Part shown: one piece after another, positions 7,760 through 40,688 of the stretch
Numbering within the stretch: position 1 is the stretch's first letter
How the letters are laid out: each line of letters starts with the position of its first letter
DNA from: Pseudovirgaria hyperparasitica
Taxonomy: Eukaryota
Length of the DNA: 52,904 nucleotides
Reading direction: 5' to 3' (one strand)
NCBI GenBank assembly: GCA_010093815.1
Contig: ML996572.1
Notes under the pieces: generated by a model
The model's input: the letters and a program-made list of their open reading frames with translations, nothing else
What the model was told of the DNA's origin: nothing
Databases searched by the model: none
Translations under genes and position numbers: made by a program

Positions 7760-7890
7760 TATAGAACTACTACCCTTAGTAGTGTAGTAACCGTGTGAGA
7801 AACCGTGTAAAGAACGCCTAAAAGAAAGACCTTAATACGAATAAAATGCGCCCCTAGTAAACCTCTTAGCGCGGGTAAACCTTAGCCCGG

Positions 7891-7923
7891 ATTATTAGTT
7901 AAGGGTAGCCCTTAACTAATAAT
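7891..7923. repeat. Shared palindrome copy 1 (attattagttaaggg-tag-cccttaactaataat)
   Basis: Perfect 15-bp arms with a 3-nt spacer. Confidence 0.95.
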
Positions 7924-7955
7924 TAGGTAGGTTTTTAGGCGCCTAATCTTAGTAC

Positions 7956-10877
7956 TTAAGGTCGCGAGCCAGCTCCTAAAGAATCGTGTTCGCTTATCTT
8001 AGAGAGGTTAGATTTCTCCTTATCAGATAGTTTATTAGGCCTCTTCTATCTATAGAAGTTCTCTTTAATATTATCTAGACCCGCGTCGGACTCGAATTTC
8101 TTAAAATTAATTAGCCGCTTAGCGGCGCGCGCCTCATTAAATTCCTTCTAGAACGACCTATCCCTATAGACTAGCCTTTTCTACCTTACTATTTTCTTAA
8201 AGGTCTCTACGAATACCCTCGAGCCCTCCTTAAACCAGGCGTCTATCTTAGCTTTAAGTTATTAAGGACTTACGTTAAGCTACGTAGCTACCTCTTCTTT
8301 TACCTCCTAGCTATTCTATCTTTTACGGCCGACTAATACGTTACTAACGGCGTTAAAACTCGGGAGTTAAACTACGGCTAGGAAGGTAAAAGGAATCGCG
8401 CTATATTTATTAGAAAATCCTAACGGAGACATAGGTCCCGGAGTTAAATTCCTATAAGCTACTACGAGTTGTTCCCATGTACCTATTTTAGACACTTCTA
8501 TTATTATGTGATTAGGGCTAATCGCGATATACTATAGAAGCATCATACATCTTCTACCCTTTACGGGACCCTAGGCGCCGTATATTATTAGTAGGCTAGA
8601 GATATGTACTTTAAGGGACTAGTAGGGGACTAGGACGAAGGGACTAAATCGTTTCTTATCGTCCGTATTATAGATCTTATCATTAATAGCCGTAATTATA
8701 CCGTTTCGATTGACCCCCTCGCGGAGCTTAGCCTTCGACTACTATTTATTTAAGAACTTATAGGAGCGGGGAACGATTATAGTATAGTTATTACTTCGTT
8801 CGTCGTCGAGACTAATACTCCCCTAGATCATGTTAAACCCGTATCTATCGCTAGGATCGAGGATTCGATTAATGGCGTTATCGAGATACTTAAAACCCGT
8901 CTTATTACCCCTATCCTAGGACTTCGCATAGTACGGGTACGAGATTAGATAGTAGTTAAGATCGGGCCGAAGAGCGATATAGGTGAGCTAGTAAAGTAGG
9001 CATTACCTAATAAACTATTAGATATAGGAGTAGTATGTAGTTCGTAGCCAGCCGTAGTTCGATTTCTTATTAAACATGCGCTGGTGGTACTTATACATAT
9101 TAAATTCATCCCTCGCGAGTTCTAGAATACTCTTATTAAGTATAGAGGTCGTCTTTTTAAGTGGCTCGAAGAGCCCTTTAATATTAATACTTCCGGTACG
9201 TTCCTACTCGTCGAAGAGTTATCTATCTATCCTACTATCCTCCTTCTAAATTATAAATGCGATACTAGTAAGGATGGTTTTAATATTAATAACTTGCTTC
9301 GGGGTCTCTAGGGCCTAGTAACAATAGACACCTAATACCTCTATCAGATAAGGTAGCCACGCGTACTTCGCGAACCAGATATAACAGTCCTTATAAACTT
9401 TAAGGGCCCCTACGTTATCTCTAAACTTATATACTATTTTAAGTCTCGCTACTAGGTTTAAGTAGGACACGCTAACGAGTATATTATTCTTTCTAGCCAC
9501 GTCTTGGTAATGCTTATAGTAGACTTTATACGGAACAGCCATGTTACCTATCTACGCTTTCTAGCGCACTAGTAGGGCCATTCCCTTAATACTCGTGAAA
9601 TTCTTCTTTAATAATATAGCTACCTTAAAAGTCTTCGTTACTAAAGGCGCGTATTAATACTTCTTAGGCTCGTCCTCTTCCTTAACCGATACTATTATCT
9701 TAGAGTACGAACTAAGAATAACCGGGGATTATCGTATAGGCGCCCCTAGTAATTACTAAGGGCCGGTAGATAAGGCACGTCCGCGAGTAGGTTTTATCGG
9801 TATAGCCGTAATAGATACTAAAGAGGTTCTTACATGGCCCGGTAAGGGATATATACTAGTAGTAGTAGAAGGAATACTTACTTTAAACGGACGACTAGCT
9901 TTAAAGAGATAACGTGCTACTAAACTAGAAGGCGTGCTTCGTGGAGGGGACTTTACTATAGACGTTACCTATACTAGTTTTAGTAACGGTAAGGTCTAAG
10001 GCGGAGGCAATATACTCATCTCTTTGATTTATAGGTAGTATTCGACGGGCCTATAAACCATTCTACTTATCTATAACTATTAACTAGCGGGGATAATAAG
10101 TCCTATCTTATTATAGAACGTTAGTTTATTTTATCGGCTAGGGTAGTTCGAGAGTTACTAGAGAGATAGACTATCCTCGTTACTATCGCTAGCTAGGGTA
10201 GCATCGATATTAGAGCTCTAAAGATATACCTTAATTCCCCTTCCCTTCTATCCCTAGCCGATTCGGGACTATAGAGATACGTTTAACTAGTTCCTCGCTC
10301 TCGCCTATATCCGCATTCGTAAGAGCGCTACTAGCTTTTCTATAAAGTTCTATGTTTACTAGAGCTATCCGAGGGCGGATTAGAGTAACTAGCTATTATT
10401 ATTAGGGAGGTCTTTTCGCTAGTTTTATAGGATCGCATTTTTGGCTTTTAGGATATGGGAGTTAGTATCTCTTCTATAATAAATTATCTTATAGACTTCT
10501 TTCGGAATGGAGGAGTTAATCTTTACCTTACTATACCCTATTACGGCTCCTACTTCCTAGAAGAGGTTAACTATACTACTTAAGAGCTATTCTATAAGGC
10601 TAGTAATGTGAAGGAGATTATTAAATATATCTAGAATATAGTCCTATCGCTCTTACGGGTCCTAGATAGCGATGATTCGGTTAATAGTAGACTTATTTAC
10701 TTCTATAGCTTCTATAGCCTATCCGTGCGGAGTAGTAGATGGCCTCGATACTATAATAGCTATTAATGGCCCTACTTTAGTACTTACGACTCTTAACTAG
10801 GACCGCGTCTATCTTATTAGTACTTAACGATCTTATAACTCTTTATAGGTAGGCGTTTTCTTTTTCGGCGGGGCTAT
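7956..10877 (-). pseudogene. Extra gene in element A: long N-terminal region plus PhyH-like 2OG-Fe(II) dioxygenase domain (RIP-inactivated)
   Basis: Frame of ORF 9542-9315 reads through TAG/TAA stops: EFNMYKYHQR..NYGWLRT..ALRPD..LISYPYYAK..TGFKYLD (HLD), MI*GSISLDDE, IIVPRSY, IIYGA*GP..RR (HGA); in-frame putative start ata-gcc-ccg-ccg-aaa-aag-aaa at 10877. Confidence 0.7.
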
Positions 10878-10924
10878 TATTATTATTAGTTCTATTAGCG
10901 AGTTACGTTCTAAGAAGAGATAGT

Positions 10925-11280
10925 TAAGCGAGGCGGAAGTAGAGGAGGAGGTTTTATCGATTAAGGAGGTATAGAGAGGTGTAAGAGGAAAGAGTTATAT
11001 ACTATCTTAAGTTCTCTTTTTATGCCTCCTCGAATGCCGGGTATATAGTAATTTTTATAAATGATTCTTGCTAACGGCTATAGGCCCGTATACGTGTCGA
11101 ATCTATGAATGAATATATACTAGGTATATAGGAAATCTATGAATAAATGTGTCTACCGGGTATATAGCGGAATCTATAAATAAATAGATACCGGGTATAT
11201 TCTTATCCTTATAAGACTTCCTATAAGTATCTTTTTCTTCTATACCTCCTCCTTCTTTTCTTCCTTATTAGTTTCTAATA
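10925..11280. promoter_or_regulatory. Putative bidirectional internal promoter of element A
   Basis: Minus-strand TATATAA (~10995-11001) followed by a CT-rich tract toward the extra gene; plus-strand tataagta (~11222) followed by a CT-rich tract; repeated ccgggtatat motifs in between. Confidence 0.45.
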
Positions 11281-11434
11281 GGGCCCGTTCTATAGTAATA
11301 AAATAGGCCTTTAATAGGTGGGCTTCGATTACACGACCGGCTTTAATATATGGTAGATAGAATTCGCGTAAACGCCATTATGTCTTCTTTCGAGCATTGC
11401 TTACTTTAATAATAAGTTTTATTATTTTATAGTA

Positions 11435-11503
11435 ATGATAGGGTTTATCATCCTCTTTCGATGATAGAGTTCATCGTCCTTTTTCGATGATAGAGTTTAT
11501 CGT
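11435..11503. repeat. 26-bp tandem repeat (gatgatagagttcatcgtcctttttc), about 2.5 copies
   Basis: Visible tandem units, each with a short internal inverted repeat. Confidence 0.75.
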
Positions 11504-14500
11504 TATAAGACTACTTTTATAAGTATCCCTTCCCTCCTTAAAAAAACTTCTATCCTCTAGAAGAAGATATTAATTCTAGGGAAACATAAATATTCTTCTC
11601 TATTAAAGTCTTGCGGAGTAGGAATTACTACTTCTACCCGGGTTCGTGTAGCGTCATCGAGGTGTTCCATAAGTTATTTATAATAGTTTTCCTTATCGCT
11701 ACTCTCCTTATTTTCCTTGGTAATTCTTCTAATTAGTAGTCGCGAGGGCTCGTTATAACTCTTATTACTTATATTTCTCATGAAATATTTCTTTAATCTA
11801 TGGCTAGGAAACGTCCCTCTAAGCATGGCTCTATTAAGCTCCGCGAGCTTATAAGTGTAATTAAACACGGACTAGATTCTATATGGCCCTCTCTAATACT
11901 ACCTTAGCTTCCGCCCTATATCCTTCTATTACTACGAGTCGTATAGAAGGATAATTATATTAACTAGTAACGACTCTTAACGAAGGTAATGGTTATTATT
12001 CTATGCCTCTCTCGATTCCTCACGCGTTCGTGTTACGTAGATATAGGCCTCCTTAAGATCCTCGGATCTTCTCTTAAGTTATCTAGCTTAAAGAGCGAGT
12101 AAGTCGGACGTTAATCGCACCTCGTCCTAAGGGAGTATTTAGAGCGACTCGAATTCGACTTTAATAGATATAATTAGTTTATGGCCGAGCACGAGGTATA
12201 TAGTACTATACCCTATACTAGTACGTGTCGTTATTCTATCTACCTAGACGACCGCATAGAGGTGGCCGGGCTAGTTCTTAAATCCGCTATTAGTTATCTT
12301 CGCGAGAGTATTAGCGAGTAGTATAAAACTTCTCTTAATAATTCTATTTACTCAGGGATTATACATAGACGTAACCTTCTAATAAATTCTATAGAGTCAG
12401 AGGAGCTCCTCTATAGCACCTATATTTTCTCTACTACCATTATAGGTGATTTTAGGAATGATTCTATATCTATAGATTACGTTCTTAAAGAGGAACTTTA
12501 CGATAACTATGGACGTGGCCGCCGTACATGCCTCCGCCTTAGTCTATCCGCTTAGCTATTCTTATATAGATACTACTTTACTATACCCTATAGAAGGTAG
12601 TAGCGTCGTTACGTCTAAGTATATTCTTTACTAAAGAATAGGCGTTATAACATGGTGGAGCCCTTTATTAAGACCTCTAAGGAGTTTACTTCGTCGTTAA
12701 TATTTATTATAGGTTTTCACGTGCTATCGCACGTCTCTACGTATACCTACCTACTAATACTTATTCTTAATTCTTCCGAGGGTCCCTTTACTACCTCTAT
12801 AATCTATCTTATTATAAGTAGCGGTAATTATACACGCCCTAGTATTCGGATCCTTAATTACTCGTGTATGTTAGCGATACCTATCTTCTCTCTACTAGAG
12901 TATTTGGTCACGCATAAGGAACTTTAGATAGTCGGTTATAAAGGCCTTATACGCTCGGTCGGTTAGATTAGTTAGCCTCTTAAGTATAGTAAGGTATTTC
13001 GTAATCCTCTACTATTTATTACTATATTTATCTATTAAGGGAGACTTAATGGCGGTATAGTCGAGTGTCCCTATCGTGTAATCTCTTCTACTAACGGGCT
13101 TAATTAACGACGTCTCTAGCACGTCTATATATAGAGCTATGTCTATAAACTCGTCTAGGTTAAAGGTAGAGATGTCTAGTGGTTCTTCTCCTTCGTATAT
13201 CCGTAAGATACTATCGGTGACTACGTTACGCTTCCTAGGTACGTGCCTAACTATAAAGTTCTATAGCTAAATCCACGCGAGCCACCTAGTAACGAGCGCC
13301 CCTAGTAAGTTAGTTACGGTATAGTTAATTTAAGCGACTAGAGTATTCGCGTCTATTTCTATAATAAAGTGCGTGCTATAGAGATATTACTAGAACTTCT
13401 ATAACGCGTGGAGGAGGGCTCGGTACTCTAGCTTCACGGTATCGTAGTTTCTCTTAGCTTTTAACTATATTCCTCTATTATACCGCGATAGCTAATATTT
13501 ATAATTCTCGTTCTCCTATATTAACGTAGCTCCCTACCCAACGTTACTAGAGTCCACTACTAGGATTATATCTTCTGTATCTATCCCGTACCGTAACGTT
13601 GTTAGTGCGGGAGTAGTAGTTAGAGCTATCTTTAGCGCGTCTATCGAGGTCTACTCCTTAGCTATCTACTACTAGGCCGATTTATTCTTTAATAGTATAA
13701 ATAGCGGCGATGCGATAATAGCGTACCCGGGGATCTATATCCGGAAATATATATAAACGCTAAGGAAGGCTCGTATATTCGTCGTGTTTTTGTAGGGTTT
13801 CTAGTCCCTAATAGTAGTAACCTTTTTATTACTCGGTCGCCTCCCTTTAATGTCGTAGATATATCCTATAACGTTAGCGGCTTTAACATACTACTAAGTC
13901 TTCTTACTACTTAGGGCGTATCCGGCGCGCTCTATATCCGCGAGAACCTTATCCACGTTAATTAAATATTCTAGGATATACCTACGAATTCTAGGTAGGG
14001 CCTCCTTAGAGTTATATTTTATTATAGGTCCTTTAATGCCTAAGTCATCTAGGAATAGTAGAGCCCTCTCCGGGATATGTTCTTATATAATAGTTAATAT
14101 AATCCTAACGAACTAAGCTACTAAATTAGTAGCCCCTTAAGGTAATATTATCCCGTGTAGTAATCCTAGGGGCGTTATAAACCCCGTTAAGTCTTAGTAA
14201 TGCTCTACTAATAGAATCTAATCATATTCTAAGAAGAAGTCGGTAAATGTTAAGACGGCTATCCCCGTAAAGTGCTCCGAGAACTCTTTATATAAGGGCG
14301 GCGTGGCCGTATCACGAATGGTAACTTAGTTAATTTCTATCGCCGAATTAATTAACCTATAATCTCGTTCCTTATTAGCTTCCTTCTTCTTTTCTATAAG
14401 AAAATAGACGTTTTAATAAGGACTACTATAGGGCTCGAGCCTTCCGCTATTAAGACGCTCTTTTAGAATCGTAAGTACCTTCCTATAAAGGGCTCTAGAA

Positions 14501-15191
14501 ATGTTAAAGTTCTTGGTCTACTATACCTTATGTTCTACCGTTCGGATCTCCTACGGAGGTACCACCTCTTCGTTAAATTTACTAAGGTATAAGAATTTCT
14601 ATGCTAGTACTTTCTCGCGATATAATAAGATTATATATAGTAACTTAAGTTCCGCGGGACGTAGCTCTATTCTAATCTTTAGCTAACTTATACGTAGAGG
14701 CGTTAGACGTGTTCCTAGCGGGATAGTTACCCTTCGAGGCTCTATTAGTCTATTAAACACGTTAAGGCCTAGATAGACGGCTAGAAGAAGTGTCTACCGT
14801 GCGATTACTTATTTACGCTAGTCTAGATACCCTAATGGATTTCTAGGAACCTTTCGGTGGGCTTCGGAGTTATCCACGGGGTGTACTTTAACTCCCTTTC
14901 TTTTATATATAGTAGCTATACTAAATCCCTTTAATACCCCGGATGAATACCGTCTTTAGAGGCCGGTAGAGCCTACTATAAGCCGTTCTATTATCGTGCC
15001 TTATTTATATACGAAGGTAGCGTACCTTACCGCCATAACTAGGGCGGCTAAGTTATCTTTTCTCGATAACTAAGTAATATTTTTAGGCCGGATTTTCTCG
15101 GAAAGTAACTCTATATAACTTATTTCTATATCCATATAAAAATATAGCCTATCCCCTTTATTAGTGGGTTTACCGGACCCTATTTAGTACG

Positions 15192-15226
15192 GATTATTAG
15201 TTAAGGGTAGCCCTTAACTAATAATC
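15192..15226. repeat. Shared palindrome copy 2, between protease and RT
   Basis: gattattagttaaggg-tag-cccttaactaataatc, perfect 16-bp arms. Confidence 0.95.
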
Positions 15227-17908
15227 TAGCTTAACTCCGGCTTCCGGCGACATGCTCCGCTATATAGTTAGTCTCTAGCCACGGAGTTACCCTCCTTCTC
15301 TAAGACTAGAATATACTTATCCGGACTAGTTTCGAAGGTTATACATTCTTATCTATATACGGAGTAGACTATTAAGAGTACTTACCTAGAGGCTAACCTC
15401 TATACCGTAAGTAAGGCCTATCTAGTATATAGCTCCCCTAGGATAAGGTTATAATTAAGTTCTCTATATATAAATATTAAAGTGGCCGTAACGATCCGAC
15501 CTATATAGATAGGGTATTACTATACTATTCCCACGAATAGAGTACTATACTAAGTAGCGCTAACTAAACTCGAGTTCTTTATATATAGTAGAAGCGAAGA
15601 TATCGCTAGCCTAAGACGCCTCGTAGCATCTAGTTAAATACTATTTATCTATGCGCCACTATCGAATAGTACTATACTAGTCGCCCTTTTAGGACTAACT
15701 TCTATAGGGTATCTTAGACACTTAGCTACTAGCCTTACTATCTCTTCCTTAAGCTAATTAATATCTTATTACGTAATAGCTATCCCCGTAGTATAGAGGG
15801 GTACTAATACGTTAAGTTTATTTATCTCGGGAGCTATTATATGGTCGTTTCTTCCTTTCTTCTCGGCTCTCTCTTCTTAAGCCTTATAGACCTCTCTAGC
15901 TATAAAGTCGGGAGCGCCCTTCTTAAATACCGCACGACGTAAGTCGCTATTAAGGCTTAATAGTTCGCTAATAGTAATGTTCATGGTTATCTCTAGAACG
16001 CGCACCAGCCATACTTCGCTAGCTTCTATGCTTAGCCGCTATCCTTCGCGTAGATAGTTATTAAGCTTAACGCCTTAGATACGTGCCTTTTAACTAGAAT
16101 TTAGGCTATCCCCTTTATCTATCTTATCCTCTAGCGCCGTTAGCTCTTATTTAGACGTTCCCTAGTCGCTACTCTTCTCGCCGTCCTCCTATTCCTTAAT
16201 AATCCTTATATACTACCCTTCATGCATTCTACGGAGACGGGCGATCTTTCTTTTCTTAGTACGATTAGGTATACTCTTTATAATCCCCCTTCTAGATATT
16301 ACGAGCATAGCGGGCTCTTCTAGAGCCATCTCCTCGTGGATATATCTATTACTAGCTACGTCGAAGCGTTCATAGAATTCTATATATCTATCTTTCTTAC
16401 TCTTGGGCGACGTGACTTCTTCTTCTAAATCGCTATCCGCTAAGGCCTAGTAGGGACCCTTTATAGATTTTATACTAATACTATATACTAGCACTCCCTA
16501 TAAAGCGTTAATATTTACTACGGACGTAGAAACCTTCACTCCTCCTCCGTACTAGCTTAGGCCGTTTTAAACCGTTACTACGTAGTTCCGGATAGCTTAT
16601 AGAGTAGCTTATGGCCCTACCGAGGAGGGTAGTAATAGAATTTCTTCTCCGTTCGTCCTAAAACGCCCTTAGAATACTCGCACCCTATTAATATTTAGTA
16701 ATCCGTCTCTAATGTATCCTACTATCTCTAGACATCTATATATTAGGTAATCTCCTCTATATATAATATATATAATTAGTCTTCGAGGTCTATTCTAGGC
16801 TATAACGCCTTCTTAGGAGTCTCGGGTAGAGACGTATTCTCTATTCTATATATAATTCTATAGATAAACTTACGTTAGTTCTATAGATATACCTTATACT
16901 TAGAGATATACTAAAAGATTTAGCCTTCGCGCCTACTAGTTAATAATGGCCGAAAGTAGCTTAGGTTCGTACTTCTTAAGGGATGGGAATAAGAGATTAG
17001 AGGTAAAGTAGAACTTCATCTTAATTAACGTGAGGTCTAGTTTACTAAATCTCTCTACCATCTTATTAAACTTATCCGATTCTAGCGCGACGTGTACTAC
17101 GACTAGAGAGGGGTGGTTAAATTCATTAGTTCTTCTTTCTTCATGTGACTACTCTTCTAAGCCGGTCTTCTTACTCTCTATCTTTAATTTATGGTATATG
17201 GCTATAGCTAGCTCTTATACGGCTAAGTACTTATTAATACGAGCTAGTTTCTTAAGTGCTCTAGCCTTTCGTGATACGAAGCTATAGATAATTACCTAGT
17301 CGTAACTATGTACTTCTATCGTAAGTTAACATTTCTCTATAGCCCGAGCCTTAAGACTATTAGGTAGCCCTTCTAGGAAGAGCTCTATTCGCGAATACGA
17401 GCTTAGGCTTCCTTTAGCCGTAAGTTTCTCCGTGATAATATAATACTAGGAGTAGTATATGGGGAGAGAGTAGGATGGGTCTACTTTAACCATTTCCACG
17501 TATTTTCGGATAAAGTAGATGGTACCTTCCTTAAGGGCAGAGTTAAATGGAGAGAATTCCTTTAATAATTCTTCACGTAGCGTGGCCTACTACTATTTCT
17601 AAAACCTACTTATTCCTTTAATAGTAGGATAGAGATAGTCCTTATAGTATGACGGTAGGGAGGTTATCTTCTTATTAGGCGGAACTTTATAGTTTATATA
17701 TATGTCCTTATACTTCTAAAGGAAGGCCGTAATGTTTATTCCTTTAAAGCGCTTAGGGGCTAGAATAGATAGAGGTACTATCCTTCCTTATCGCGTAAAT
17801 GCTATGAAGAAGTTAAGTATCTCTCTACGAGTTACTAGGTTATTATTTTAAGCTCCTATTATACTATTACTAGTAGTAGGTATACTAGTAGAGACGCTAG
17901 GGGTAAGG

Positions 17909-17936
17909 TTATTAGTTAAGGGATTACCTTAACTAA
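17909..17936. repeat. Shared palindrome copy 3 (degenerate), near the gag start
   Basis: Exact left arm ttattagttaaggg, then atta-ccttaactaa. Confidence 0.8.
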
Positions 17937-18419
17937 AGGTTAGCCTAATGCGTCTACCTATAACACCTATCATCCCTTCTCCATGTTAACTAATCCCTTT
18001 ATAAGGTAAACTATTACTATCGTCTTTATCGATATAAGGTTCACGGTATCCTACTTATATTATTATCTTCGTGTAAGGCGTTCCTAAAGTAGTATACTCG
18101 TATAGCCGTGTTTATAAATAACAGCTATAGTAGTACTAAATAGATTATATTTATCGTTTTTAAACTCTTCTTTACTACTTCATCTAGCCCTATTTTATAT
18201 CCTATTCCCCTAAGACATTTTCGAGTCGTGCTATCACCCGTGTTAGCATGCGTATACTTTTTACAGCTACTTTTAAGAGGCTAGCCCCTAGCGACTCCGG
18301 ACTCCCTATTTTCCGGACTCGTAGCTTCGATCTAGTAAATCTAGACTACCTTATTAGGCACGCTATATACTTCCCCTAAGCTAGTTTCGGAGTCCTAATC
18401 TCCCCCTATAAGTTCGTAG

Positions 18420-18436
18420 TCCGGGTATAACCTCTA
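18420..18436 (-). promoter_or_regulatory. Primer binding site, probably tRNA-Gln
   Basis: Plus strand tccgggtataacctcta resembles a RIP-altered fungal tRNA-Gln 3' end (..CCGGG..ACCT-CCA), 4 nt from the 5' LTR. Confidence 0.65.
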
Positions 18437-18440
18437 AAAT

Positions 18441-18761
18441 TATGGTAAGCTATCGCCACGAGTGTCCCTTTTATAAATGGCTATGTTCCTAGTATAGTAG
18501 TCGCGACGAACTCATAAGTATCTCTCCTAGGTATTATAAGTTCTCTTTGAACGCACGACTTCTTATTAGTTCTCTTTTATAATAGGACGGGTCTATATAA
18601 TACTCTTAATNNNNNNNNNNNNNNNNNNNNNNNNNNNNNNNNNNNNNNNNNNNNNNNNNNAGTAGAATGACCAAGGAAAACGCCCTCCTTAAATATATAA
18701 TGAAGCCATGTAATCGAGCTAGGGACACATACATATAGGGCTGTAGGAGCGGCCTTCCACA
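18441..18761 (-). repeat. 5' LTR of element A (contains a 50-N gap)
   Basis: Matches 7373-7744 apart from transitions and the gap. Confidence 0.95.
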
Positions 18762-19250
18762 CTATATTAGTAAGCTTAATGTTTCTATACTTAGTAAGTA
18801 TTTATACTACCTACTAGTAATATAATTCACTAATATATATAGGTACTACGTCTATATATATAAGCGAAAATATTAGTATATTTACTAGCCGGCCTAAGTA
18901 CGTCCGAATTAAATAAGGTATATAGATTATTTAGATTAACTAAGTTAGATTCTCCGTGTATTCTACTAGTATTAGCTTCGTAGGTCTATAAAGGATAAGA
19001 TCTAATAGTTACTAGTTTTATAGTATTAGTAGACTAATACTTACGTAAGAAGACGTGGCCGTAGATAAGTATAAGATATTATTACTATAGATAATATTAG
19101 CCTATAGTATATATATATACTTTAATTTTAGACTATTTAGAGGTTAAGGCTAGACTTACCGCGTTAGGTAAGGCAATCGAAAGTATAAGAATATAAGCCT
19201 TAGACCTAGGAAAAGAAGATATAGCTATAGTAGAGATAGCTATATCTAAT
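18762..19250 (+). pseudogene. SNF2-family helicase pseudogene, 3' part after the LTR insertion
   Basis: Continues across TSD CTAT; intron-like gtaag..ctaat..tag at ~18793-18842; motif VI-like R-x-H-R-x-G-Q-x-x-P-V after RIP correction at ~19075-19120. Confidence 0.6.
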
Positions 19251-19449
19251 ATACTAGTAATAGGCGTACGCTTTAATTCTATAGAAATATAGTAGTATAG
19301 AAGTAAGTAAGGTAGTTAGTTAATTAGCTTCTAAGAGACTAGATAGTATAGTAGTATAAATATAAACCGCTATTTACTCGTAATTATATATCTATATATA
19401 TCTATACGTGAAGAGAAATAAGATATTTATTCTATACTATTATATAGTA

Positions 19450-19755
19450 GGATATTACTATATATGCCGGTATATAACGGAATATTCTAATATACGCCGG
19501 TATATTATAGAATATTCCTAGATACTTAAAGTATAGTCGTAGTATAAAGTAGTATTACTATTATATACCGGCATATAGTAGAACGTTACTATATATACCG
19601 GTATATAACGGGATCATGTTCCGACATACTATACGCCGCTAGTATATTATAGAATATTTCTAGATACTTAAAGTATAGTCGTAATATAAAGTAGTATCGC
19701 TATACTATACCGGTATTTAGTAGAACGTTACTATATATACCGGTATATAACGGGA
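19450..19755. repeat. Duplicated ~140-bp unit with multiple tat(a/g)ccggtatata motifs
   Basis: 'tagatacttaaagtatagtcgta' and 'gtagaacgttactatatataccggtatataacgggat' each occur twice. Confidence 0.8.
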
Positions 19756-19784
19756 TTAAACGTTTTCTTAATATTTAATAGAAC

Positions 19785-19975
19785 GATTCTAAAAGAACCG
19801 GGATAGCTCTAGAAGAACTAGTAGGACGACTCTAGAAGAACTAGGATAACTCTAGAAGGACTAGAACGACTCTAGAAGTACCGGGACGACTCCGGGAGGA
19901 TTGGGATAACTCTAGAAGTACCGGGACCCATTTAGGATAACTTTAGAAGTACTAGAAGACCTAGAAGTATTAGGA
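19785..19975. repeat. About 20-bp degenerate tandem repeat (gactctagaagaactaggac-like)
   Basis: ctctagaag core recurring about every 20 bp. Confidence 0.75.
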
Positions 19976-20019
19976 GCGTCATATCTTTTCTAATGTAAGT
20001 ATTCTATTTATACTAAACG

Positions 20020-20160
20020 TTCTATTTATACTAAACGTTCTATTTATACTAAACGTCCTATTTATACTAAATATACTAGTTATACTAAATATTCTATTTA
20101 TACTAAATATACTAGTTATACTAAACGTCCCGTTTATACTAAACGTACTATTTATACTAA
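20020..20160. repeat. 18-bp tandem repeat (ctatttatactaaacgtt), about 8 copies
   Basis: Visible tandem units. Confidence 0.9.
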
Positions 20161-22533: not shown

Positions 22534-22571
22534 TTAAGTTTAATTCTATTTTACTCTCTAAGTACTTTACT

Positions 22572-29367: not shown

Positions 29368-29582
29368 TATTAAGGGTAGACCCTAGGTATACTTAACGCT
29401 AGCGTACTACGTCTACGCTACTACTCTCTCCTCGCTTAATAAAGCTAAGCGAGCTCCTTTTTAATAGTATACTCTATCCCTTATCTTAAGGAAGCTAAGT
29501 AGACTTTGGCTTCCTCCCTTATTAAACTTACTATATTCTATAAATACTCTTACGTCTATGTATACGTCGTATTCCCGTAATA
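29368..29582 (+). repeat. 3' LTR of element B
   Basis: Direct repeat of 22319-22533. Confidence 0.95.
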
Positions 29583-30843
29583 GCTAGGTATATATATATA
29601 TATATTTTATATTAATAGCTATTATATAAGTCCCTATTATTAATACTAATATATATCTATATTATATTATATCTTTATTTACCTATTCTATTTAGTTTAC
29701 TATAGTTACTAGATTATCTTCTATTAGTTTTACTACTATAGTAGCTAGATAGCCCCTTAACTATCTTCTATATTAGAGATTCTATAGAGAAGATATATAA
29801 GAGATTAGTAGATATTTTTATTAGCTATAGATTAGTAATCTACTAGATAAAATATTAGATAGTAGAATAATAACTAGCTAATAGATATAATAAAGATTTA
29901 GACGTAGACTAATATAGTATTTTATATAGACGTGTAATACTTATATATTATTATTAATAATTTTACATAAGTATATATAGAAATTAAGAGACTAAGAGCT
30001 AGGTAGAAGTCGGGGGCTAGTAGATATATATCGGGCTTTCAACGGGCTTATACCTAACTTCTTCTAGTATATATCTAGAATATCTACTATATACTATATT
30101 ATTACTATCTACTAATAATTATACTATAGTATTTTTCCTTTATAGTAACTATATCTTAAGATACTATAGACTATAGTCTTCTACTAATACTATAGTAGAA
30201 AGATTAGTAGTATATACTATATAATCCGTAGGTACTATAACTCGGAACTATATAGACGAGTATAGCTTACTATATTACTATTATTATTATAACTATTAGG
30301 TCTATAGCTACTACTATTAACCGGGTTATAGCGCGGCTTTAGTACTTATAGTTATATTAGTTAATAGAACTCTTTAGTTTACTCTATTAGTATTAAGCTA
30401 CTAAGCGTTAATTAGAAGTCTAAGTCTATAGAATTAGATACTTCTACTACTAATACGGCCCTATATAAAGATACTACTATATTCCCTAATTATATTTTAG
30501 ACCTAGAATCTATAGAGGGCGTTACTAGTAGCTATAGTACTAATTTAGTATATTAGTCTAATATATATAGTAGAAATACTATAACTATAGTAATAAGAGT
30601 ATCTAGTACTATATATTTAATAAAAACGTTTAAAGAAGAGAGTAGTATATATATTCTAGTAGACTAGAGTAGACGTAATAATCTATCTAATATAAGTATA
30701 TATAGTCTATTATTATAGTAGTAACTAATTTAGTAGACCCGATTCGGTTAATTTAATAGTAAGTTTATAGAGCGCCTTATAATATAGATAAATTGGTTTA
30801 GTATTTTAAATATAGCGTATAATAAATTAACTACTATCCTTAA

Positions 30844-31606
30844 TAATAATAATAATATTATATAACTAGATAGAGTAGTACTCTATAGGCCTATGCCTTC
30901 TCTAGTCTAAGCTACTATATAAGAAGAAACCCTATAGAAAAAAACTTCCTTATATCTATAACTATATCTCGTTAAACCTCTATTTTATCTTAAGTATATA
31001 GCTATAGAGTACGCCTATTAGTCTATAGCCTATATTACTATTATTTTACCCTTAGATAGTACGTATAGATATAGAGGTTATTAGTTAAGGGCTACCCTTA
31101 ACTAATAATCGGGGTTCTTCCGGGGTTCTTCTAGTATATATTAGGTTACTACTAGCGTATATCGGGTCTCTTCTAGTATATATTTCTAGGTCTACTAGTA
31201 CTAGAGGAGTAGTAGATATATAAGTATCTATTAGGAGACATTCTTAGGGTACTTATTAAGCTATTATATAATATCTAAAGTCTTTATAATATAGATAAGC
31301 TATTACCGTTATATATAGAGGTTAGGGTATATAGCTAGATAGTAGCGTATTATACCTCTCTAGCCGTATACCTTATACTATAGGGAGGTATTAGGAACGC
31401 CTCTCTTATAGAGGTAGTATAGAAGTTCTATAGTATCTATTCGGGCTTAGATAAGTATAGATACTTAGGCTTTCGTTAGCCCTTTATATATCTATTTACT
31501 TAGTTCCTTCTATAGTCCTTAAATCTACTCTAGATATCTATCCTACTAGAAGGTCTAGTAGATATAGAGTATCTCTTTCTACTTGTCTTAAGTCTACGAC
31601 TATATG
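30844..31606 (-). mobile_element. 5'-truncated copy of the Tad1-like LINE
   Basis: Reverse complement of ~40160-40925; (TTA)n tail; 17-bp TSD ttaactactatccttaa (30827-30843, 31607-31623). Confidence 0.95.
31078..31108. repeat. Shared palindrome copy 4 (3' UTR of the truncated LINE)
   Basis: ttattagttaaggg-cta-cccttaactaataa. Confidence 0.95.
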
Positions 31607-34600
31607 TTAACTACTATCCTTAAATAGACTTCCGCTATACCCTCTAATCTTTTTATACTAAAATCTAATATTATATATAAGTAGTTATTATACTACCCTA
31701 AAGGGATACCGTATAAAAGTTAGTAGTATAGCTATAATATATTTAGTACTACTATAGTTAAATGCTAGTATAGAAATCCACTTATATTAGTAGAATTCCT
31801 TCTTAGATACTAACTATTTACTAGTAAGCTCGTATTTAAGCTAGTGTAATAATTTACTAGTTTAGACGACTAGATATATAGTAAAGTCTATATAGTAGAT
31901 AGTTAGTAGAATATATATACTACTATTCCGGACGGTATCTTTATCGTCTCTATTATTTTATCTTTAGATAAGATAAACCTTACTAACTATAGTAGTAATA
32001 GAGTAGTATAGCTAGTCTATCTATCTATTTATAATCTACTACTAAACGTCTACTTATCTAGAAGTCTACTATTATTTCTACTACTTACTCTATTACTAGT
32101 AGTTAAGCTAGAAATAGTAGCGAATTACTTTATATTCTATTAGATTATAAGTAAAGTTCTAGTCTATATATCCGCCTACGATAGAGTCGTTAACTATACT
32201 AATTATTATATAGTATTATAGGCTATATAGAGTACTAGAGTATTAGTATTATATACTAATAGTAGCTTACGTATATACTATCCGTGTTTAGCTTTATATA
32301 TTATAGATTTTCTAGAGTAGGTACTTATTATAGGTATATTCTATTAGTATATATATCTAATATATATAGTCTCTAGTAATAGACAATAGTATCTACAAGA
32401 AGCTATTACTAGTATATAGAAGTTCTATATATACTTATTATTATAGAAATAGATTTACTATATATATTATAAGTTAATAACTAATAGCTATAGTAGTAAG
32501 TATACTAGTAGTAAGATAGATAATAGAATAAGTATACCTAGTATCTTATTATTTTCGTCAATATCTTTCACGCTAGTAGTATAGAGCTATTATATTTACT
32601 AATTAGTTAAGAGTTAGTATTCTAGTAGATAGATAGAGCTATTAGATAATTTCGTCTAGTTACTTACTAGAGTTAATATATACTACGCGGTTACTCTAGA
32701 TATTCTATATTAACTATATAAGGGTATATTAGAATATATATTTAATTAGATAGTCTTATATATTATTAATTAAGAGCGTACGGGATATAGATTAAAGGGT
32801 ATATTTACTAGTATACCCTCTATAGAATAAGTAAAGAAGGTAATTAATAAGTAATTTACGTCTATTAGGGTATTTAGTTATTATAATCTACTTATATATA
32901 TAACTTTAGTAATATAATAGATAGGGGTAATGTTTAAGTATATACTAGTAGTATTTATAGTTACGTTTAAACCGCTCCTATATTATAATTAATACTTTCT
33001 AAGTATAGTATAGACGGTTATTAATATATATATATTAGCGGCGTACTATATATATAATATATAGATACTAGTATACTTAGAGGAGACTATATAATACTTA
33101 GACGATCTAAAATACTAGTTTATACTATATTATAGAGATAAATTAGAGGATAATTATTTTAACTTTCTAAAGTTCTATATATTATTGTACCTAGTTAATA
33201 CTATTAAGTACTATAGTTTATTATATCTAATATTAGCGGAGCTACTAGAGTAATCTTATATTATAGTAAAGAAATTATATTAAGGTTTAAATAAGAGGGA
33301 GATATTTCTATAGTAGATACTAGTAGTAGATATACGTATAACTAATACTAAAATCTCTAGTAGTATAGAGGTAGTAGCTAGTAATAGTATATTAGTAGCC
33401 TCTAGCCTAGAGTAGCTTAATAATATATATAAGCTAGTTAGCTAGCGGCGTATTTTCAAGGAGCTATACTAGAGTAAATATATAATCTATATCTTATAGA
33501 GCTATAGACTATCTATATCCTACTAGACTACTATTAGTAACCTCTATAATATATATAGTAGTAGTTTTATATTACTTAATATGGTTACCCCCTTTATATA
33601 TAACTATTATAATTAGCTTATTAGAGATAATATATTAAGAGAAGTAAATATTAAATATATTAAAAAGAACCCTTCGTAGGTACGGGTTCTTTCTATCTAT
33701 ATATATAAGACTATATACGTACTAATATAACTAGATAGAGATATATCTATAGAGGCCTTCGATCTAGTTTAGATAAGATATATCTATAACTAGTAAAAGA
33801 GTAGTAAGGCTAGAGAGAATTATATATTAGTATAGGAGTTTAATAAGGGTAGTAACTACCTTAATAGAAAGCGGGTTAGTAAAGTCCGTATATTTCTAGA
33901 GGTATATAATATAGAGAGTATCGATATAACCAGTAGTATAGCGGCGTGATTCCTAGGTATATTAGTTAAACTACTTAATAACTTAGGTAGAGGTAATATT
34001 AATACTATTAGTAGCCTTATACTATTATATATAGCGGGTTAAAGGTTAGATAATAAGACTTATATAATAGATAGGTTCCGTATCTACGAGCTAGAGTATA
34101 TTCTACACCCTATATAGATTATATTATATTAGTTAGTTACGGATAGTTTATTCTAGTTAAATATATATAGTAATTAGGGAATCTATAATAAGGTATATAA
34201 TCTAGACTTCTAGGCTATAAATAGATAGAATATAACTATAGCGTTAAAATATAGACGCGTGTTATAAGTCTATCGCTATCTACTACTATCTACTATAGTA
34301 TACTAGTATATACTATTATATAGCGGAAGTTATAGTTTATATATAGTAGTACTTAATAGTTATATTCTATACTAGAATATCTCTAAGGAATAATTATAGT
34401 TTATTATAATTAGTTCTATAAAAGACTTATATTTAATAACTATCTATAATTTTAGCTAAGGAGTATCTAGGGATATACCTCCTTATTATCTAATAATTAC
34501 TAGCTAGTATAAAAACTCTACGTCTCTAAAAAGGGTATATAGAACTTAAAGAATTCTTATTTATAGATAGAACTAGATCTAGATAGTATTAATCTAAAAT

Positions 34601-34744
34601 AGATAGATTATATATATTAATACTCTAAAATCCGAATTATATCTCTAGATCTACTAGACCTAGCTCGTATCTAATTCTAATATTTTCGTTATTCGCGTTT
34701 ATATCTTATTAGATACTAGGTATATAATAAGTCTATAGTTAAGT

Positions 34745-34920
34745 AAGTATCGGGTATATAACGAGTCTATTAATAAATAAATACCGGGTATATAACGAGT
34801 CTATATAAATAAGTATAAATAAGTATATACTAGGTATATAACGCTCTTACTAGAGAAACGTCTTCCTTAAGTATCTCCCTCTTCTAATATTTCTTCTTCT
34901 CTTTCTTTATTCTTTCTCTA
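34745..34920 (+). promoter_or_regulatory. ccgggtatataacg motif cluster followed by taagtatct and a CT-rich tract
   Basis: Three motif copies; same layout as 11035-11265. Confidence 0.45.
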
Positions 34921-35881
34921 GTCTTATAAGTATAGTTAGACTTATATTACTATATTATTAATATATATATTCTTATATAGACCGTTAGAAACTATAGTAA
35001 CTAGATATACGCTCTTATAATAGATAAATATACTATACTAATACGTTATATTATTCGTGTTTAATATAAGAGTTCGCTACTACGATCGTTTATTATTATA
35101 CTTATCTATCTCTTCTTAATAATAGTACTAATTAATAGTAATCTATTATAGAGATAATAGTTAGTATTATATACTTCTCTTAAATATTTATATATTAATA
35201 TTATATAAGTATATACTTCGCGGAGGTCCTCTATTCTTTTCTTAAGCTATCTAGACTATTCTCTAATTACTAAAAAACTCTTATATCTAACTATTTCTAC
35301 TATTTATTCCTTAGTTCTACTTATTAGACTTCGAATAATAGTAAACTATAATAGATTAGTAGTTATCTATATTTTATATATACTAAGTTAGTATACCTAA
35401 ATATAACGGATAATAGTATATTTATAATAGTATATACTAGATCTTATAGTATTTCTCTTTAGTGGTAGATCTATATAGTTATAAAGACGGTCTACTATTC
35501 TATTATATCTATATACTACGCTACTCTTTTATTATATATAGATAGTATTACTAGAGTAGAGCTATCGCCTAGTAAACTTAATATTATATATAGAGTATTA
35601 TATATTTAACGTTGTTATTTCACGTACCCTATATTAGTACGGAGTTAAAAACTTCTTATACTCTAATAGACTAAACTAGTTAATTCGGGGTAAAATAGTA
35701 ATTTACATATATTAAACGATAGAGTATACCGAGTATAATAACCTCCAATATACGTACGTATATATAGCGTATAATATACGATAATACTAATATATAGAGA
35801 TACTATATATATATACTCGAAGACTCTTTAATAATATAAGTATAGACTATATCTAATAAACGTCGATATACCGACCCCCTT

Positions 35882-35912
35882 TTATTAGTTAAGGGCTACC
35901 CTTAACTAATAA
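35882..35912. repeat. Shared palindrome copy 5, 2 nt before the ORF1 ATG
   Basis: ttattagttaaggg-cta-cccttaactaataa-cc-ATG. Confidence 0.95.
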
Positions 35913-35914
35913 CC

Positions 35915-37400
35915 ATGGCGGCCTTAGGTATTATAATACCCTAGTATACGCCGGATATACCCCTACTAGTATAGTAGAAACGGCTATATAGCGATATTAA
36001 TATAGATAGCTAGATACCTATCTAAAATATAGGAACTAACTAAGGGTACGAAGCGCTATAGATAACCTAGACTAAGGGGACCCCGAGAGGGGAGACCCTC
36101 CTAGATAAAATTAAATACTAGATAATATATATAGAGAGGGACGCCGAGAAGGGAAAGAAGACTCTCCTTTATATATTCTAGAACCTTATCTAGAATCTAA
36201 GAGAAATTATAGAGGAAGAAAGGAAGTTACTACGAGAGGAACCTAGTAGTAGACTTAACTAAATAGAAGTTAGCCTACGAAGAATCTAGAAAGAGCTATC
36301 CTAAGGTAAGCGCCCTAATACGTAGGCTTAGATTATAGTAATACCCGGAGCTACCGTACTAAGAACTACTAGAACTATAGATAGAGTATATAGTATACGT
36401 ATTATAATCTAGGATAAGAATATACTAGTATAGATCTAATAGATATCTCTAAAGGAAATTATAAATAAGATTAATAAATAGAAAGGAATATAGTTAAGCG
36501 TCGTAGCTACTAAAGTTACGCTAGGTAGGGTAGTACTTACTACTATAACGAATACTACGTAGTAAAACATCTTACGAGATCCGAACACGATAGATAGTAT
36601 CTTCTCTAGCGCGTCTATTAGGGTAGCTATATATCTAATTATAGTATATATAGTATCTATACGGGGATAGGCTATCGGAGCGGAGAATATTACGTGTATA
36701 GAATAATCTAACATATAAAAATACCTAGGGATTAAGATTATAAAGCGTAATAGAAGAATCTATAGGCGATTAAGACGACGGTAAAAAAACACTCTACTAT
36801 AATTATAGAGCTCTAAGACCCCGCTCTTATATAATATATTATATAGAAGGGATTCCTAGTAGAAGGAGAGCTCCTTATAGCCGAGCCATAGAATAGGGTA
36901 TAGGTAATAATATAGTACTTTAACTATTAAGGGTATAGATATACTATATAAAGATACTTATAGAAGACTAAGTGCGGATAGTACTATAGGGACCACGCCA
37001 CCTAGAAGTACTCTTATAAACTATAAGAAGACGGACTAAGAAATAGGGATATAGTATAGTATTTAAACTATAACGGGAAATATCTATTATAGTCGTTAAC
37101 GTATATAAAACGTAAATAGATTATAGAATATATTTATATAATAAAAGCGAGAGACGTAAGATAGTTATAGAATATAATATCTACTACGGGCTCTTTCTTT
37201 ATAATACCTCTAACCTCCCCTCTAGAAGGTAGTTAGATAGAATAGTAGACTATTCTAAAGACGATAGAACGACTAAAAGATATAGTTAAAGCCGCTACCG
37301 CGCGAGGATAGTCGCGTCTCTAAGGAATAAGTATATAGATATATATACTCCCTAGTATCTAATAAGGGACTAGAATATACTCTAAATTATATAGATAAAT
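35915..37400 (+). pseudogene. LINE ORF1 (gag-like, three CCHC knuckles)
   Basis: ATG 35915; RIP-altered CFNCQGYGH..C, CGQC.GDH..C and CLNCNGKH..C at ~36915-37105. Confidence 0.85.
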
Positions 37401-40400
37401 ATATAATATAAAAGAGAGAACTAGGCGACGCTCCTCGAAGAGACTAGTACTATAATACTTACTATCTAGGAACCCTATAAATACTACTAGATGAGTAAAC
37501 TAACCATACACCCCGGATACTATACTATATACCCTCTAGAACTAGAAAGACGAGTTCTCTTCTATATTTATAGGTTAATACTACTCTTATTATAGTTATA
37601 TACCAAGCGTAATAACCTTAGGATAATACTATACCTATAAATAGATATAGGCCCCCTATATATATATAATATATATAACTAATAATATATATTTATACTA
37701 GATAAGATACTTAAGGGTACTACGGAACTAGGGTAATACATCCTTCTAGAAGACTTTAACCTCTACTACTAATAGTAGGGAGGCCTAGCCGTAGTTAGAG
37801 AAGAACTTAGAGTAAGGGAACTACGTACCCGCTACCACGACTTTCTATATCTACTTATATCTATAGAATAAGTTATATAGAAAAAATATAAATAGAATAA
37901 AGATAGGTCTACGCTTAATCTTATCTTCGCTACGGAGTATATTAGTTACTAGATCTAATACTACTACCTAGGCTAGGTATAGACGGATTCCGACTATAAA
38001 TATATAGAAACTATAATAAATATATATACCCCGAATAAATAACGGGGATAATAGATATAGAAGAATACTAACTAGAAAAAGTATCTAAAGGACCTGGAAT
38101 CGGCGATTCTAGATCCCTCTATAGTCGATATATCTAATAATCTAGCTATAGACTAGGCCGTATAGATACTCCTATAAATATACTAGAATATAAGAAATAA
38201 ATATATACTATACTAAATATACTAGCCCCTAGAAGTAAAGAGAATTCCTTAAGTATAGGAAAGTAGATAAGACGCCTAAAGACTATATATATATATATAC
38301 TATACGAGAATACCTAAGTCGTAGAAAGAATAGAAGAAAGCGATATAATAATATAATAAAGTCCTCCGTAATAAAAGGCGTAAATAGTAGTATATAATTA
38401 CTAGTTAATAGATATGATACGTAATAGGGCTATAGTATATAGTAAAATAGGCTAAGGGCATAGATACTCCGATACCCCTACTACTTATATCTCCCCTAAT
38501 ATATTAGGGGAGAATATACTCTATAAGTCTTAAGAAAACTAAGGCCCTATAGAAGACTATATTCCCTCTCCTAGAACTAGTAGATCTATTAGATATTTAT
38601 AGCGCTAAATATCTATACGCGGTAGATATCTCTAAAGAAGTTACGGAGAAGGATATACTTAATATTATTAAGATACTTCTAAATAATAAAGTATCTAGAC
38701 TAGATGGAATTCTAAATTAATACCTAAAAAGTACTATAAAAGTAACCCTACCGCTTATTACTCGTATATTCTAAGCATGCGTTACGTAGGGATACTACCC
38801 CTAGTACTTCCGAGTTGCCTATACTATTATACTTCTAAAACTAGAAAAGAGCTCTAACTTTCTAAAGGGATAGAGACTAATTACTCTTCTCTTCTATCTA
38901 GATAAGATACTAGAGACTATAATAGCGAAGAAGATAAGTACCGTAGTATAGAAATATAATCTTCTCCCTCTAAACTAGAAGGTAAAGGTAGATAGCTCCC
39001 TAATAATAGCTATCTAATATATTATTAAAGTCGTCTAGGCCGTATAGAAATAGGGACGGGTAGTATCGCTTCTCTCCCTTAATATGGCCGGAGCGTTTAA
39101 TAAGGTAAACTATATAAGACTTATTTATAACCTCCGGATAAGACGAATACTAGAATAGATTATACGCTTTATATAGTTATTCCTTATAGAAAGAATAACT
39201 TAGGTATATATCCCTAGATACTAGAGCGAATATAAAGAGATGGTATACGGTATCCTATAAGGGAGTACTATCTCTCCAATCCTATTCCTCTTCTTTATAG
39301 TAGACCTTCTTTAAGAAATAAAGTATATAGAGATAGTTAGATACGCTAATAATATATACCTTCTAGCTATTAATAATAATACTAACTAAACGTATAGATA
39401 ACTAGAATAGAACTATAAGAGGTACCTCTAGTAGATAAAACGCCACGGAGTAAAGTTCGCCCTAGAGAAATACTAGCTTATATACTTTATTAATTATTAA
39501 GAAAAATAGATAACTAGGGAAGGCGAACGACGCCTCTAAATCGACGTATTTAATAAACTACTAGTATAAAGTATACGCGCGCTTAGAGTTATACTAGATA
39601 GTAAGCTTAAATAGGGACTATAAGTAGTATACGCTATCTCTAGGGCCCTCCGGGTAGAAGCTACTATATAATAGATTATAGTCTCTATGTAGGGAACCGC
39701 CTAGGATAAGGTACGCTAGCTATATATATCTATAGTATAACCCGCCTTTATATATAGACACGAGTACTAGTATACGGCCCTTATATAGACTAGGCGAATA
39801 AAGCTCGAATCTATATAGAACCGTATACTCCGTCTTATATTAGATATATATAAAGCTACTAATATGGTACTACTACGACGCGAGATAGATATTATAAGTA
39901 TATATAACTTCTACTAGATATAGAGGGTGGTATACTTTACTAAATAATAAGTATAGAAATATATAGGAAACGTAGAATATACTTTTACCACGCTATATAT
40001 ATGAATTAGTATATATTACCATATACTCCTATATATAGACCGGAATTAAATATAGTATAGGTACTTAATAGAAGCCGACTCTAGCTAAGTAGTATAAGAA
40101 GTCTAAGATGCCCTAGACACTCTTCTAGACTAGTAGAGCCTTTAAGAACTCGTGAAAAATATATAGTCGTAGACTTAAGATAAGTAGAAAGAGACACTCT
40201 ATATCTACTAGACCTCCTAGTAGAATAGGTACCTAGAGTAGATTCGAGGGCCATAGAAGAAACTAAGTAAATAGATATATAAAGGGCTAACGAAAGCCTA
40301 AGTATCTATACTTATCTAAGCCCGAACGGGCGCTATAGGACTTCTATACTATATCTATAAGAGAGGCGTTCCTAATACCTCCCTATAGTATAAGGCGTAT

Positions 40401-40640
40401 AGCTAGAGAGGTATAATACGCTACTATCTAGCTATATACCCTAACCTCTATATATAACGGTAATAGCTTATCCACGTTATAAAGACTTTAGATATTATAT
40501 AATAGCTTAATAAGTACCCTAAGGACGTCTCCTAATAGATACTTATATATCTACTACTTCTCTAGTACTAGTAGACCTAGAAATATATACCGGAAGAGAC
40601 CCGGTATACGCCGGTAGTAACCCGATATATACTAGAAGAA
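37400..40640 (+). pseudogene. LINE ORF2 (APE endonuclease, reverse transcriptase, C-terminal CCHC)
   Basis: GDFNLHH (~37750), DSDH (~37990), PGPDG (~38700), D.AGAFD.V (~39080), GIPQGS.ISPILF (~39250), YADD (~39345), QARTG (~40320). Confidence 0.9.
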
Positions 40641-40657
40641 CTCTAGGAGAACCCTAA

Positions 40658-40688
40658 TTATTAGTCGAGAGTAGCCCTTAACTAATAA
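40658..40688. repeat. Shared palindrome copy 6 (LINE 3' UTR)
   Basis: ttattagtcgagag-tag-cccttaactaataa; keeps a CG where other copies have TA. Confidence 0.9.

Follow-up and report, generated by a model that had tools for sequence, protein, structure and literature searches.

The DNA analyzed here is a stretch of 52,904 nucleotides from Pseudovirgaria hyperparasitica (contig ML996572.1, GenBank assembly GCA_010093815.1), referred to below as the window. It contains two retrotransposons that share a short palindrome, namely a Ty3/gypsy long terminal repeat (LTR) element, designated A, and a non-LTR element of the long interspersed nuclear element (LINE) type, the 3' end of which is present a second time as an inverted copy. 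Both have been degraded by repeat-induced point mutation (RIP). The palindrome is 31 bases long and consists of two 14-nt arms separated by a 3-nt spacer (TTATTAGTTAAGGG-NNN-CCCTTAACTAATAA). It occurs exactly at 7892, 15194, 31078 and 35882, where the arms form perfect terminal inverted repeats, and with three mismatches at 40658.

The whole window was searched with the 31-mer, leaving the 3-nt loop free and allowing up to three mismatches. Five matches were obtained, and none of 100 shuffled sequences contained any match. A transition-tolerant pattern, in which only pyrimidines (Y) and purines (R) were distinguished, gave six matches and again none in 100 shuffles; the copy added was 17909-17939, with two mismatches. 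When all window positions were scanned for agreement in these two classes, only the six copies reached at least 26 of the 28 arm positions, and five of the six reached all 28. Seventeen further listed places scored 23-24 of 28, which is the chance level (14-38 such places in each of 20 simulated sequences). Agreement at 28 of 28 positions in a two-letter alphabet excludes the convergence of unrelated sequences, and the six copies are judged from their arms to be homologous; they probably derive from one short insert. An earlier note, made from the letters of the window, had reported the palindrome at six sites, which the searches confirmed; four of its coordinates were exact, while 7891 should be 7892 and 15192 should be 15194.

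Three LTR elements (A, B and C) were delimited in the window by their LTR pairs. Element A is assigned to Ty3/gypsy on protein similarity: from 14922 to 12157 it aligned in one frame with fungal Pol proteins carrying reverse transcriptase (RT), RNase H and integrase families, and direct Pfam matches to RT_RNaseH families were obtained. The nearest gypsy Pol proteins are 35-40% identical and align from the RT onward only. The second host is classed as a LINE by similar means, with RVT_1 at residues 152-361 of the translated stretch 38400-39599 (plus strand) and one-frame similarity from 37731 to 40364 to ORF2 proteins having an endonuclease and an RT. Its (ATT)n tail at about 40925 is the point at which similarity to the truncated copy stops. 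Only one open reading frame (ORF) of at least 150 codons is left in the window. Pfam searches with the 118 stop-free ORF pieces of the window returned nothing for gypsy A or the LINE, and neither the LINE ORF1 translation nor the endonuclease region had a Pfam match. Coordinates of the hosts, the six copies (s1 to s6) and two neighboring features are given in Table 1.

Table 1. Palindrome copies, their retrotransposon hosts and neighboring features in the 52,904-nt window
Feature	Position	Strand	Description
Host 1, Ty3/gypsy LTR retrotransposon A	7371..18766	-	RIP-degraded; LTRs 7371-7744 and 18439-18766
Host 2, non-LTR (LINE) element	35882..40925	+	RIP-degraded; (ATT)n tail
Truncated LINE 3' end copy	30841..31608	-	Inverted; 92% identical to 40158-40925; 768 nt
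s1	7892..7922	.	Perfect palindrome; + strand loop TAG; in gypsy A; left flank CCCGGA
s2	15194..15224	.	Perfect palindrome; + strand loop TAG; gypsy A protease-RT linker; left flank TACGGA
s6	17909..17939	.	Decayed; left arm intact; loop ATT; right arm ACCTTAACTAAAGG
s3	31078..31108	.	Perfect palindrome; + strand loop CTA (LINE sense TAG); in 5'-truncated inverted LINE copy
s4	35882..35912	.	Perfect palindrome; LINE sense loop CTA
s5	40658..40688	.	3 transitions, all in the left arm (TCGAGAG); CpG kept
Extra RIP-damaged ORF of gypsy A	~9641-8150	-	Between integrase and 3' LTR
Third gypsy element, C	42758-50139	+	Matches to RT, integrase zinc and SH3 domains

The truncated LINE copy is an inverted repeat of the 3' end of the LINE, and s3 and s5 lie at the same place in the two, as the earlier note had said. 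There are therefore five, not six, independent sites. All lie in the two retroelement families, and the remaining ~36 kb of the window has no copy. In gypsy A, s1 is about 120 bp past the end of an extra ORF and 148 bp ahead of the 3' LTR, s2 is in the linker between protease and RT, and s6 is in the leader or at the start of gag, about 500 bp inside the 5' LTR and upstream of the first gag similarity (17424). In the LINE, s4 ends 2 nt from an ATG in the context CCATGG (35915) that is likely the start of ORF1, and s5 is at the estimated ORF2 end or 3' untranslated region start, 237 bp ahead of the tail. These mapped positions agree approximately with the gene and domain boundaries described before. 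On the sense strand of the host the loop reads CTA in s1, s2 and s4 and TAG in s3/s5; both orientations relative to transcription are thus represented.

RIP has saturated the window, the indices being 1.68 for TpA/ApT and 0.17 for (CpA+TpG)/(ApC+GpT). Transitions account for 58 of the 59 substitutions between the two LINE copies, and the commonest difference is CG to TA: CG stands opposite TA 14 times, as against 10 positions with CG in both, from which it follows that RIP here erodes CpG to TpA in addition to its action on CpA. Copy s5 has TCGAG in place of the TTAAG of the other copies and differs from them by transitions alone, three in number. Together with the CpG erosion this indicates that the TCGA of s5 is ancestral and that TTAA elsewhere is a RIP product. 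The pre-RIP core was therefore about GTCGAGGG-TAG-CCCTCGAC; an ancestral arm like ...GTCGAGGG had been suggested previously, and s5 and the CG/TA counts of the LINE copies both support it. The present palindrome has no CpA, TpG or CpG, which is also the case for 27.6% of the window's 31-mers. It is consequently beyond further change by RIP, and the identity of four copies is no sign of selection, constraint or recent insertion. Un-RIPed CA and TG were also observed at 35913-35920 (CCATGG), amid an otherwise saturated region.

The flanks were compared after turning each copy so that the loop reads TAG, using the four independent perfect sites against random window positions. The left flanks are CCCGGA, TACGGA, CCCCGA and CCATGG, the last two nucleotides being GA at three sites and GG at one. 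Their mutual similarity was significant over 2-10 nt (p = 0.006-0.024), while the right flanks were dissimilar (p = 0.90-0.99). Copies s1 and s2 have 36 exact bases in common (CGGA, the 31-mer and T), and both have 33 (GA and the 31-mer) in common with s3. The description of the flanks as unrelated therefore holds in part. The one-sided similarity, with one exception among the four sites, suggests that the unit is directional, in that either 2-6 extra bases belong to it or insertion took place beside such a motif; the shared bases suggest that what was inserted may really have been 33-37 bp with a direction. Outside the 31-mer no direct repeat was found at any site, which bears out the statement that no consistent target-site duplication is visible. 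A 10-bp target duplication considered at 7892 (TTAG...) was rejected, since by flank reading it is not common to the other sites. No alignment was obtained between the flanks of the palindrome sites and LTR elements B and C of the window.

The linker copy s2 bears on the inserted length. The gag similarity (17424), the protease (DSGA near 15660) and the RT (from 14925) of gypsy A are in the same frame, with s2 between protease and RT. As one frame is kept around s2, the net gain would be a multiple of three, either 33 if GA is included or 27 if a TA duplication is hidden in it. In this frame s2 reads IIS*GLPLTNN, and its sole stop is the TAA where s5 keeps CGA.

Two read runs of one sample, as contigs, were compared with 15150-35149 at 80% likeness; sites 7892, 35882 and 40658 are outside this stretch. 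Of the words sampled from 7800-17799, 72% and 53% are present in the two runs. Summed contig depth in run X1 was 112,000-159,000 for gypsy A and 156,000-166,000 for the LINE 3' arm, compared with 4,000-7,800 for element B. Gypsy A and the LINE are high-copy families. A 305-nt contig, present as the same piece in both runs, begins at 31087, within the palindrome, and shows 41 differences over 297 positions. Such divergence exceeds the 8% between the LINE copies of the window, and the contig therefore represents a third, more diverged LINE copy carrying the palindrome. The s1 junction flank is carried by three contigs. The palindrome is thus shared by several copies of each family and was probably present before the families multiplied.

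We consider it probable that the palindrome is an inserted micro-element that hitch-hiked with its hosts. A short hairpin-forming insert with the 31-bp palindrome as its core would be ancestral to all six copies, and the conserved flank ...C(C/G)GA on one side may be part of a directional unit of 33-37 bp. The hairpin would have entered the gypsy and LINE lineages at five separate places while both were still active, and would then have been multiplied passively with each retrotransposition of the host. The surviving insertions would be the harmless ones, in a 5' leader, just before an ATG, in frame between protease and RT, and shortly downstream of ORFs, so that the gene- and domain-boundary positions may reflect survivorship, only harmless insertions in master copies having been amplified. 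That a gypsy element and a LINE share it would likewise be owed to the activity and abundance of these families and would not point to a shared role. RIP may later have ruined the hosts and driven the insert to a form without CpA, TpG or CpG, leaving four copies now identical. The account as a whole (hairpin insert, host hitch-hiking and freezing by RIP) is evenly balanced in our judgment between being right and being wrong in some part.

As to primary entry, a directional, duplication-free insertion of the hairpin at the DNA level, either guided by the hairpin or by capture in break repair, is favored because the flank conservation is one-sided and a duplication is missing; it is put forward tentatively. 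A classical cut-and-paste element with inverted ends seems the less likely mechanism. A micro-insertion element was one of several options listed in the earlier note, and it is the best fit to the homologous copies, both orientations and unrelated contexts.

Several points weigh against this explanation. No empty site was seen for any copy. At 15194 and 31078 no loss of the 31 bases was found among the 12 listed of 39 indel rows, but since the contigs break at the palindrome this does not show empty sites to be absent. The read runs are probably from the source sample itself and hence are not independent. The flank statistic rests on four sites, one of which (35882, CCATGG) does not fit. The location of all five independent sites within the ~32% of the window made up by the two elements speaks in favor of it (0.325^5 = ~0.004, calculated by hand), but this figure is post hoc. 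The frame argument at 15194 assumes that no other indels have occurred in ~745 nt of unconserved linker, and the upstream protein matches of gypsy A on which it draws are weak (E 0.015-0.3). The LINE copy could be native, in that its left flank CCCCGA repeats the native motif AGAACCCCGGA / AGAACCCCGA. The 31-mer has TA at both ends (T-TA...TA-A), so that a TA target duplication could be concealed within it. Finally, no enzyme able to move such a unit was found in this analysis, and we know of none in fungi.

A hidden TA duplication would be expected if the mobile unit were instead a Tc1/mariner-type miniature inverted-repeat transposable element (MITE) of 25 bp (TTAG...CTAA with 11-bp inverted ends) that duplicated TA, as T-TA-(25)-TA-A, and was moved by a transposase encoded elsewhere in the genome. 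The arms are perfect inverted repeats, TA is rightly placed on both sides within the 31-mer, and a net gain of 27 bp keeps the frame at 15194. The de-RIPed end could read TCAGT, which we take to resemble mariner-type ends. On the other hand, a T before and an A after the TA would be needed at all four independent perfect sites, and only 6.9% of the TA dinucleotides of the window lie within TTAA. Conservation of one flank, tied to the orientation of the loop, is unexpected for a symmetric element, and eleven-base ends lacking subterminal sequence offer very little for transposase binding. A half-site search of the window gave 14 matches, of which 11 were arms of the six copies and three were elsewhere, against 3.56 expected by chance; no larger parent element with palindrome ends was found within the window. 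Such a MITE is regarded as unlikely. A half-site near 15158 (TTATTAGTGGG) was rejected as a chance match, TTATTAGT being found at 22 places other than the copies, where 20.6 would be expected.

The fit to a Helitron was also checked. Helitrons have 5'-TC and 3'-CTRR ends, insert between A and T, and carry a hairpin some 10 nt upstream of the 3' end. For the 31-bp unit the A/T insertion context is present at two of four sites. The 25-bp unit (T(T from C)AG...CTAA) would fit only with TTA...TAA as a constant target, and the hairpin abuts the end where that of a Helitron lies upstream.

According to the next alternative, the stem-loop is native to the end of LINE ORF2, and short pieces of LINE RNA or cDNA comprising the left flank and the hairpin gave rise to the copies in the gypsy element and at the LINE 5' end, by template switching of reverse transcriptase or as filler during the repair of breaks. 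Immediately adjoining the LINE palindrome on its left is a 10-11-nt tandem duplication (reading AGAACCCCGGA / AGAACCCCGA in the copy with fewer mutations) at 40635-40657, inverted at 31109-31131. Its CCCGGA also precedes the gypsy copy at 7892, and the gypsy left flanks (CCCGGA, CGGA) match the motif AACCCCGGA / AACCCCGA repeated beside the LINE hairpin. Every host is a retroelement of a high-copy family, and copying from a template is consistent with a right end that is constant and a left end that varies. For Hypoxylaceae it has been proposed that hairpin-forming sequences are gained seamlessly and without duplication (PMC8469720). We nevertheless regard copying from the LINE as rather unlikely. 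At least three separate origins of the identical right boundary of the 31 bp would be required, and the hairpin is 237 bp from the LINE 3' end, so that it is no ordinary truncated LINE insertion. Template switching is without direct evidence, and the flank similarity at three of four sites is statistically modest.

A cis-element under selection is improbable. Such an element could be bound by a dimeric protein, with an anti-silencing or insulator function, or could act as a hairpin in the RNA during packaging or translation, as the earlier note had proposed, or during export. Repeated gain and retention in the same families (three sites in gypsy A and two in the LINE), the position of s4 2 nt before the ORF1 ATG and the stability of the hairpin (-10.9 kcal/mol as DNA, z -6.8) would be consistent with such a role. 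Compensatory changes between the arms, which had been proposed as a check, were not seen, however: in none of the 14 stem pairs have both partners changed, and the pairing lost in s5 and s6 is due to a single arm, which is weak evidence since the copies are dead. The loop orientation on the sense strand differs among sites, no Rfam match reached the gathering score, and the identity of the copies is explained by immunity to RIP. A recombinase-type site was also among the original proposals; lox- or FRT-like sites of tyrosine recombinases consist of two inverted arms around an asymmetric spacer of 6-8 bp, to which a 3-nt spacer is a poor fit.

Excision footprints of a DNA transposon with 14-bp inverted ends would leave two inverted ends and 3 bp without internal sequence, as found, but footprints vary by site and four copies here are identical, no target duplication flanks them and the flank conservation is one-sided; this origin is very improbable. 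That the palindrome is no real shared element (chance, RIP-driven convergence, or an assembly or adapter artefact) has a negligible probability, for although RIP lowers sequence complexity and the window has two N gaps, no shuffle matched even in the Y/R alphabet, RIP-type changes (s5) and decay (s6) have occurred in situ, contigs of an independent read assembly start inside the palindrome, neither gap (4793-4971, 18611-18660) is near a copy, and the palindrome resembles no adapter known to us. A tRNA origin was rejected, no tRNA genes having been found.

The unit is likely a variant of the short palindromic interspersed elements, and in its behavior it is most like a MITE or a bacterial repetitive extragenic palindromic (REP)-type hairpin, while being a proven member of neither. 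MITEs, of which mimp and Guest are fungal examples, are similarly non-coding, have perfect terminal inverted repeats and occur in either orientation; their dispersal in unrelated contexts, often inside other transposons, has as its counterpart here five sites, all in two retroelement families. The present unit differs in being 31 bp, far below the usual MITE size, with no demonstrable target duplication, no parent in the window and a one-sided flank. REP sequences and the hairpin ends of IS200/IS605 elements share with it a short palindrome, and may share a short motif on one side, directional insertion and the absence of target duplication; they belong to prokaryotes and depend on a Y1 HUH transposase, of which no fungal example is known to us. 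It is quite doubtful, yet conceivable, that the unit is a eukaryotic counterpart of bacterial REP/IS200-type hairpins, a directional hairpin of ~35 nt that inserts without target duplication beside C(C/G)GA. Such a counterpart could owe its movement to a fungal enzyme not yet recognised or to break repair, and its high copy number mainly to active retrotransposons; if so, it would be far smaller than any mobile unit described from the nuclear genome of a fungus. The palindromic elements of Rickettsia are bacterial and 100-150 bp in length. They too are tolerated in frame within coding regions, as the palindrome appears to be at 15194, although here only one of five sites is coding.

Two eukaryotic cases are also comparable. 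In Hypoxylaceae, symmetrical 'sister' introns that are hairpin-forming and near-palindromic multiply and integrate seamlessly, and capture at repaired breaks has been proposed for them (PMC8469720). They share with the present unit the capacity to form a hairpin and the filamentous ascomycete setting, but are 93-207 nt, spliceosomal and genic, whereas the palindrome is 31 bp and lies in retroelements, where it would be lost from the RNA if spliced. An introner-like or symmetrical intron was rejected for the window, 31 bp being too short and GT...AG absent from the unit ends. The organelles of Volvox carteri contain short palindromic selfish repeats, with inert copies in the nucleus (PMC2670323). 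Those are likewise short hairpin repeats that spread selfishly in a eukaryote. They did so in organelle genomes, in contrast to the few primary sites in nuclear, RIP-mutated retroelements described here.

Database and literature searches gave no precedent. The RIPed 25-nt core had no matches in JGI metagenome contigs, prokaryote genomes or viral contigs, none of which are collections built from fungal genomes, and the de-RIPed degenerate pattern had none in metagenomes and prokaryote genomes, again not fungal collections, so that these negatives carry little weight for fungi. No copy was found in any of the 185,579 prokaryote genomes searched. Literature searches on RIP, palindromes and MITEs yielded no account of an element of this kind, and a full-text search for the 11-mer returned unrelated papers only.

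The pattern is unusual (tiny, directional and borne by retroelements), yet it rests on five sites in one window. If it were confirmed genome-wide, a hairpin of ~31-37 bp would be seen to enter active retrotransposons at harmless positions and to be spread by them, a parasite of parasites below the size range of repeat finders and MITE tools. If only a LINE stem-loop was copied into the gypsy element, it would be a minor curiosity. RIP can in either case make old repeats seem perfectly conserved, which matters for the reading of 'conserved motifs' in RIP-affected fungal genomes.

The extra ORF of gypsy A (Table 1) had been called a dioxygenase cargo gene. Its read-through translation has 561 relatives in a library of 1.84 billion proteins (best E 7e-72) and matches the C-terminal half of proteins of ~900 aa. 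Five top matches were scanned and had no Pfam family, the three named ones being 'hypothetical'. The ESM Atlas gave PhyH-type dioxygenases as a lead only (score 0.91), so the assignment is plausible by that lead and finds no backing in the Pfam scan of the top relatives. A link of the palindrome to this gene, which had been raised as possible, is not supported, only one of five sites being near it.

Element C is far less affected by RIP than its neighbors (index 0.40, with 333 CpA/TpG left) and has no palindrome copy. Of the two N runs in the window, that of 50 N (18611-18660) is within the 5' LTR of gypsy A, and that of 179 bases (4793-4971) adjoins a 236-bp tandem repeat present in three copies (4058-4763). 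Long arrays of an 18-bp tandem repeat are located at 50684-51313 and 19963-20232. The sole ORF of more than 150 codons in the window (50689-51249, minus strand) is inside one of these arrays, and its weak 'outer membrane beta-barrel' Pfam matches look like a low-complexity artefact.

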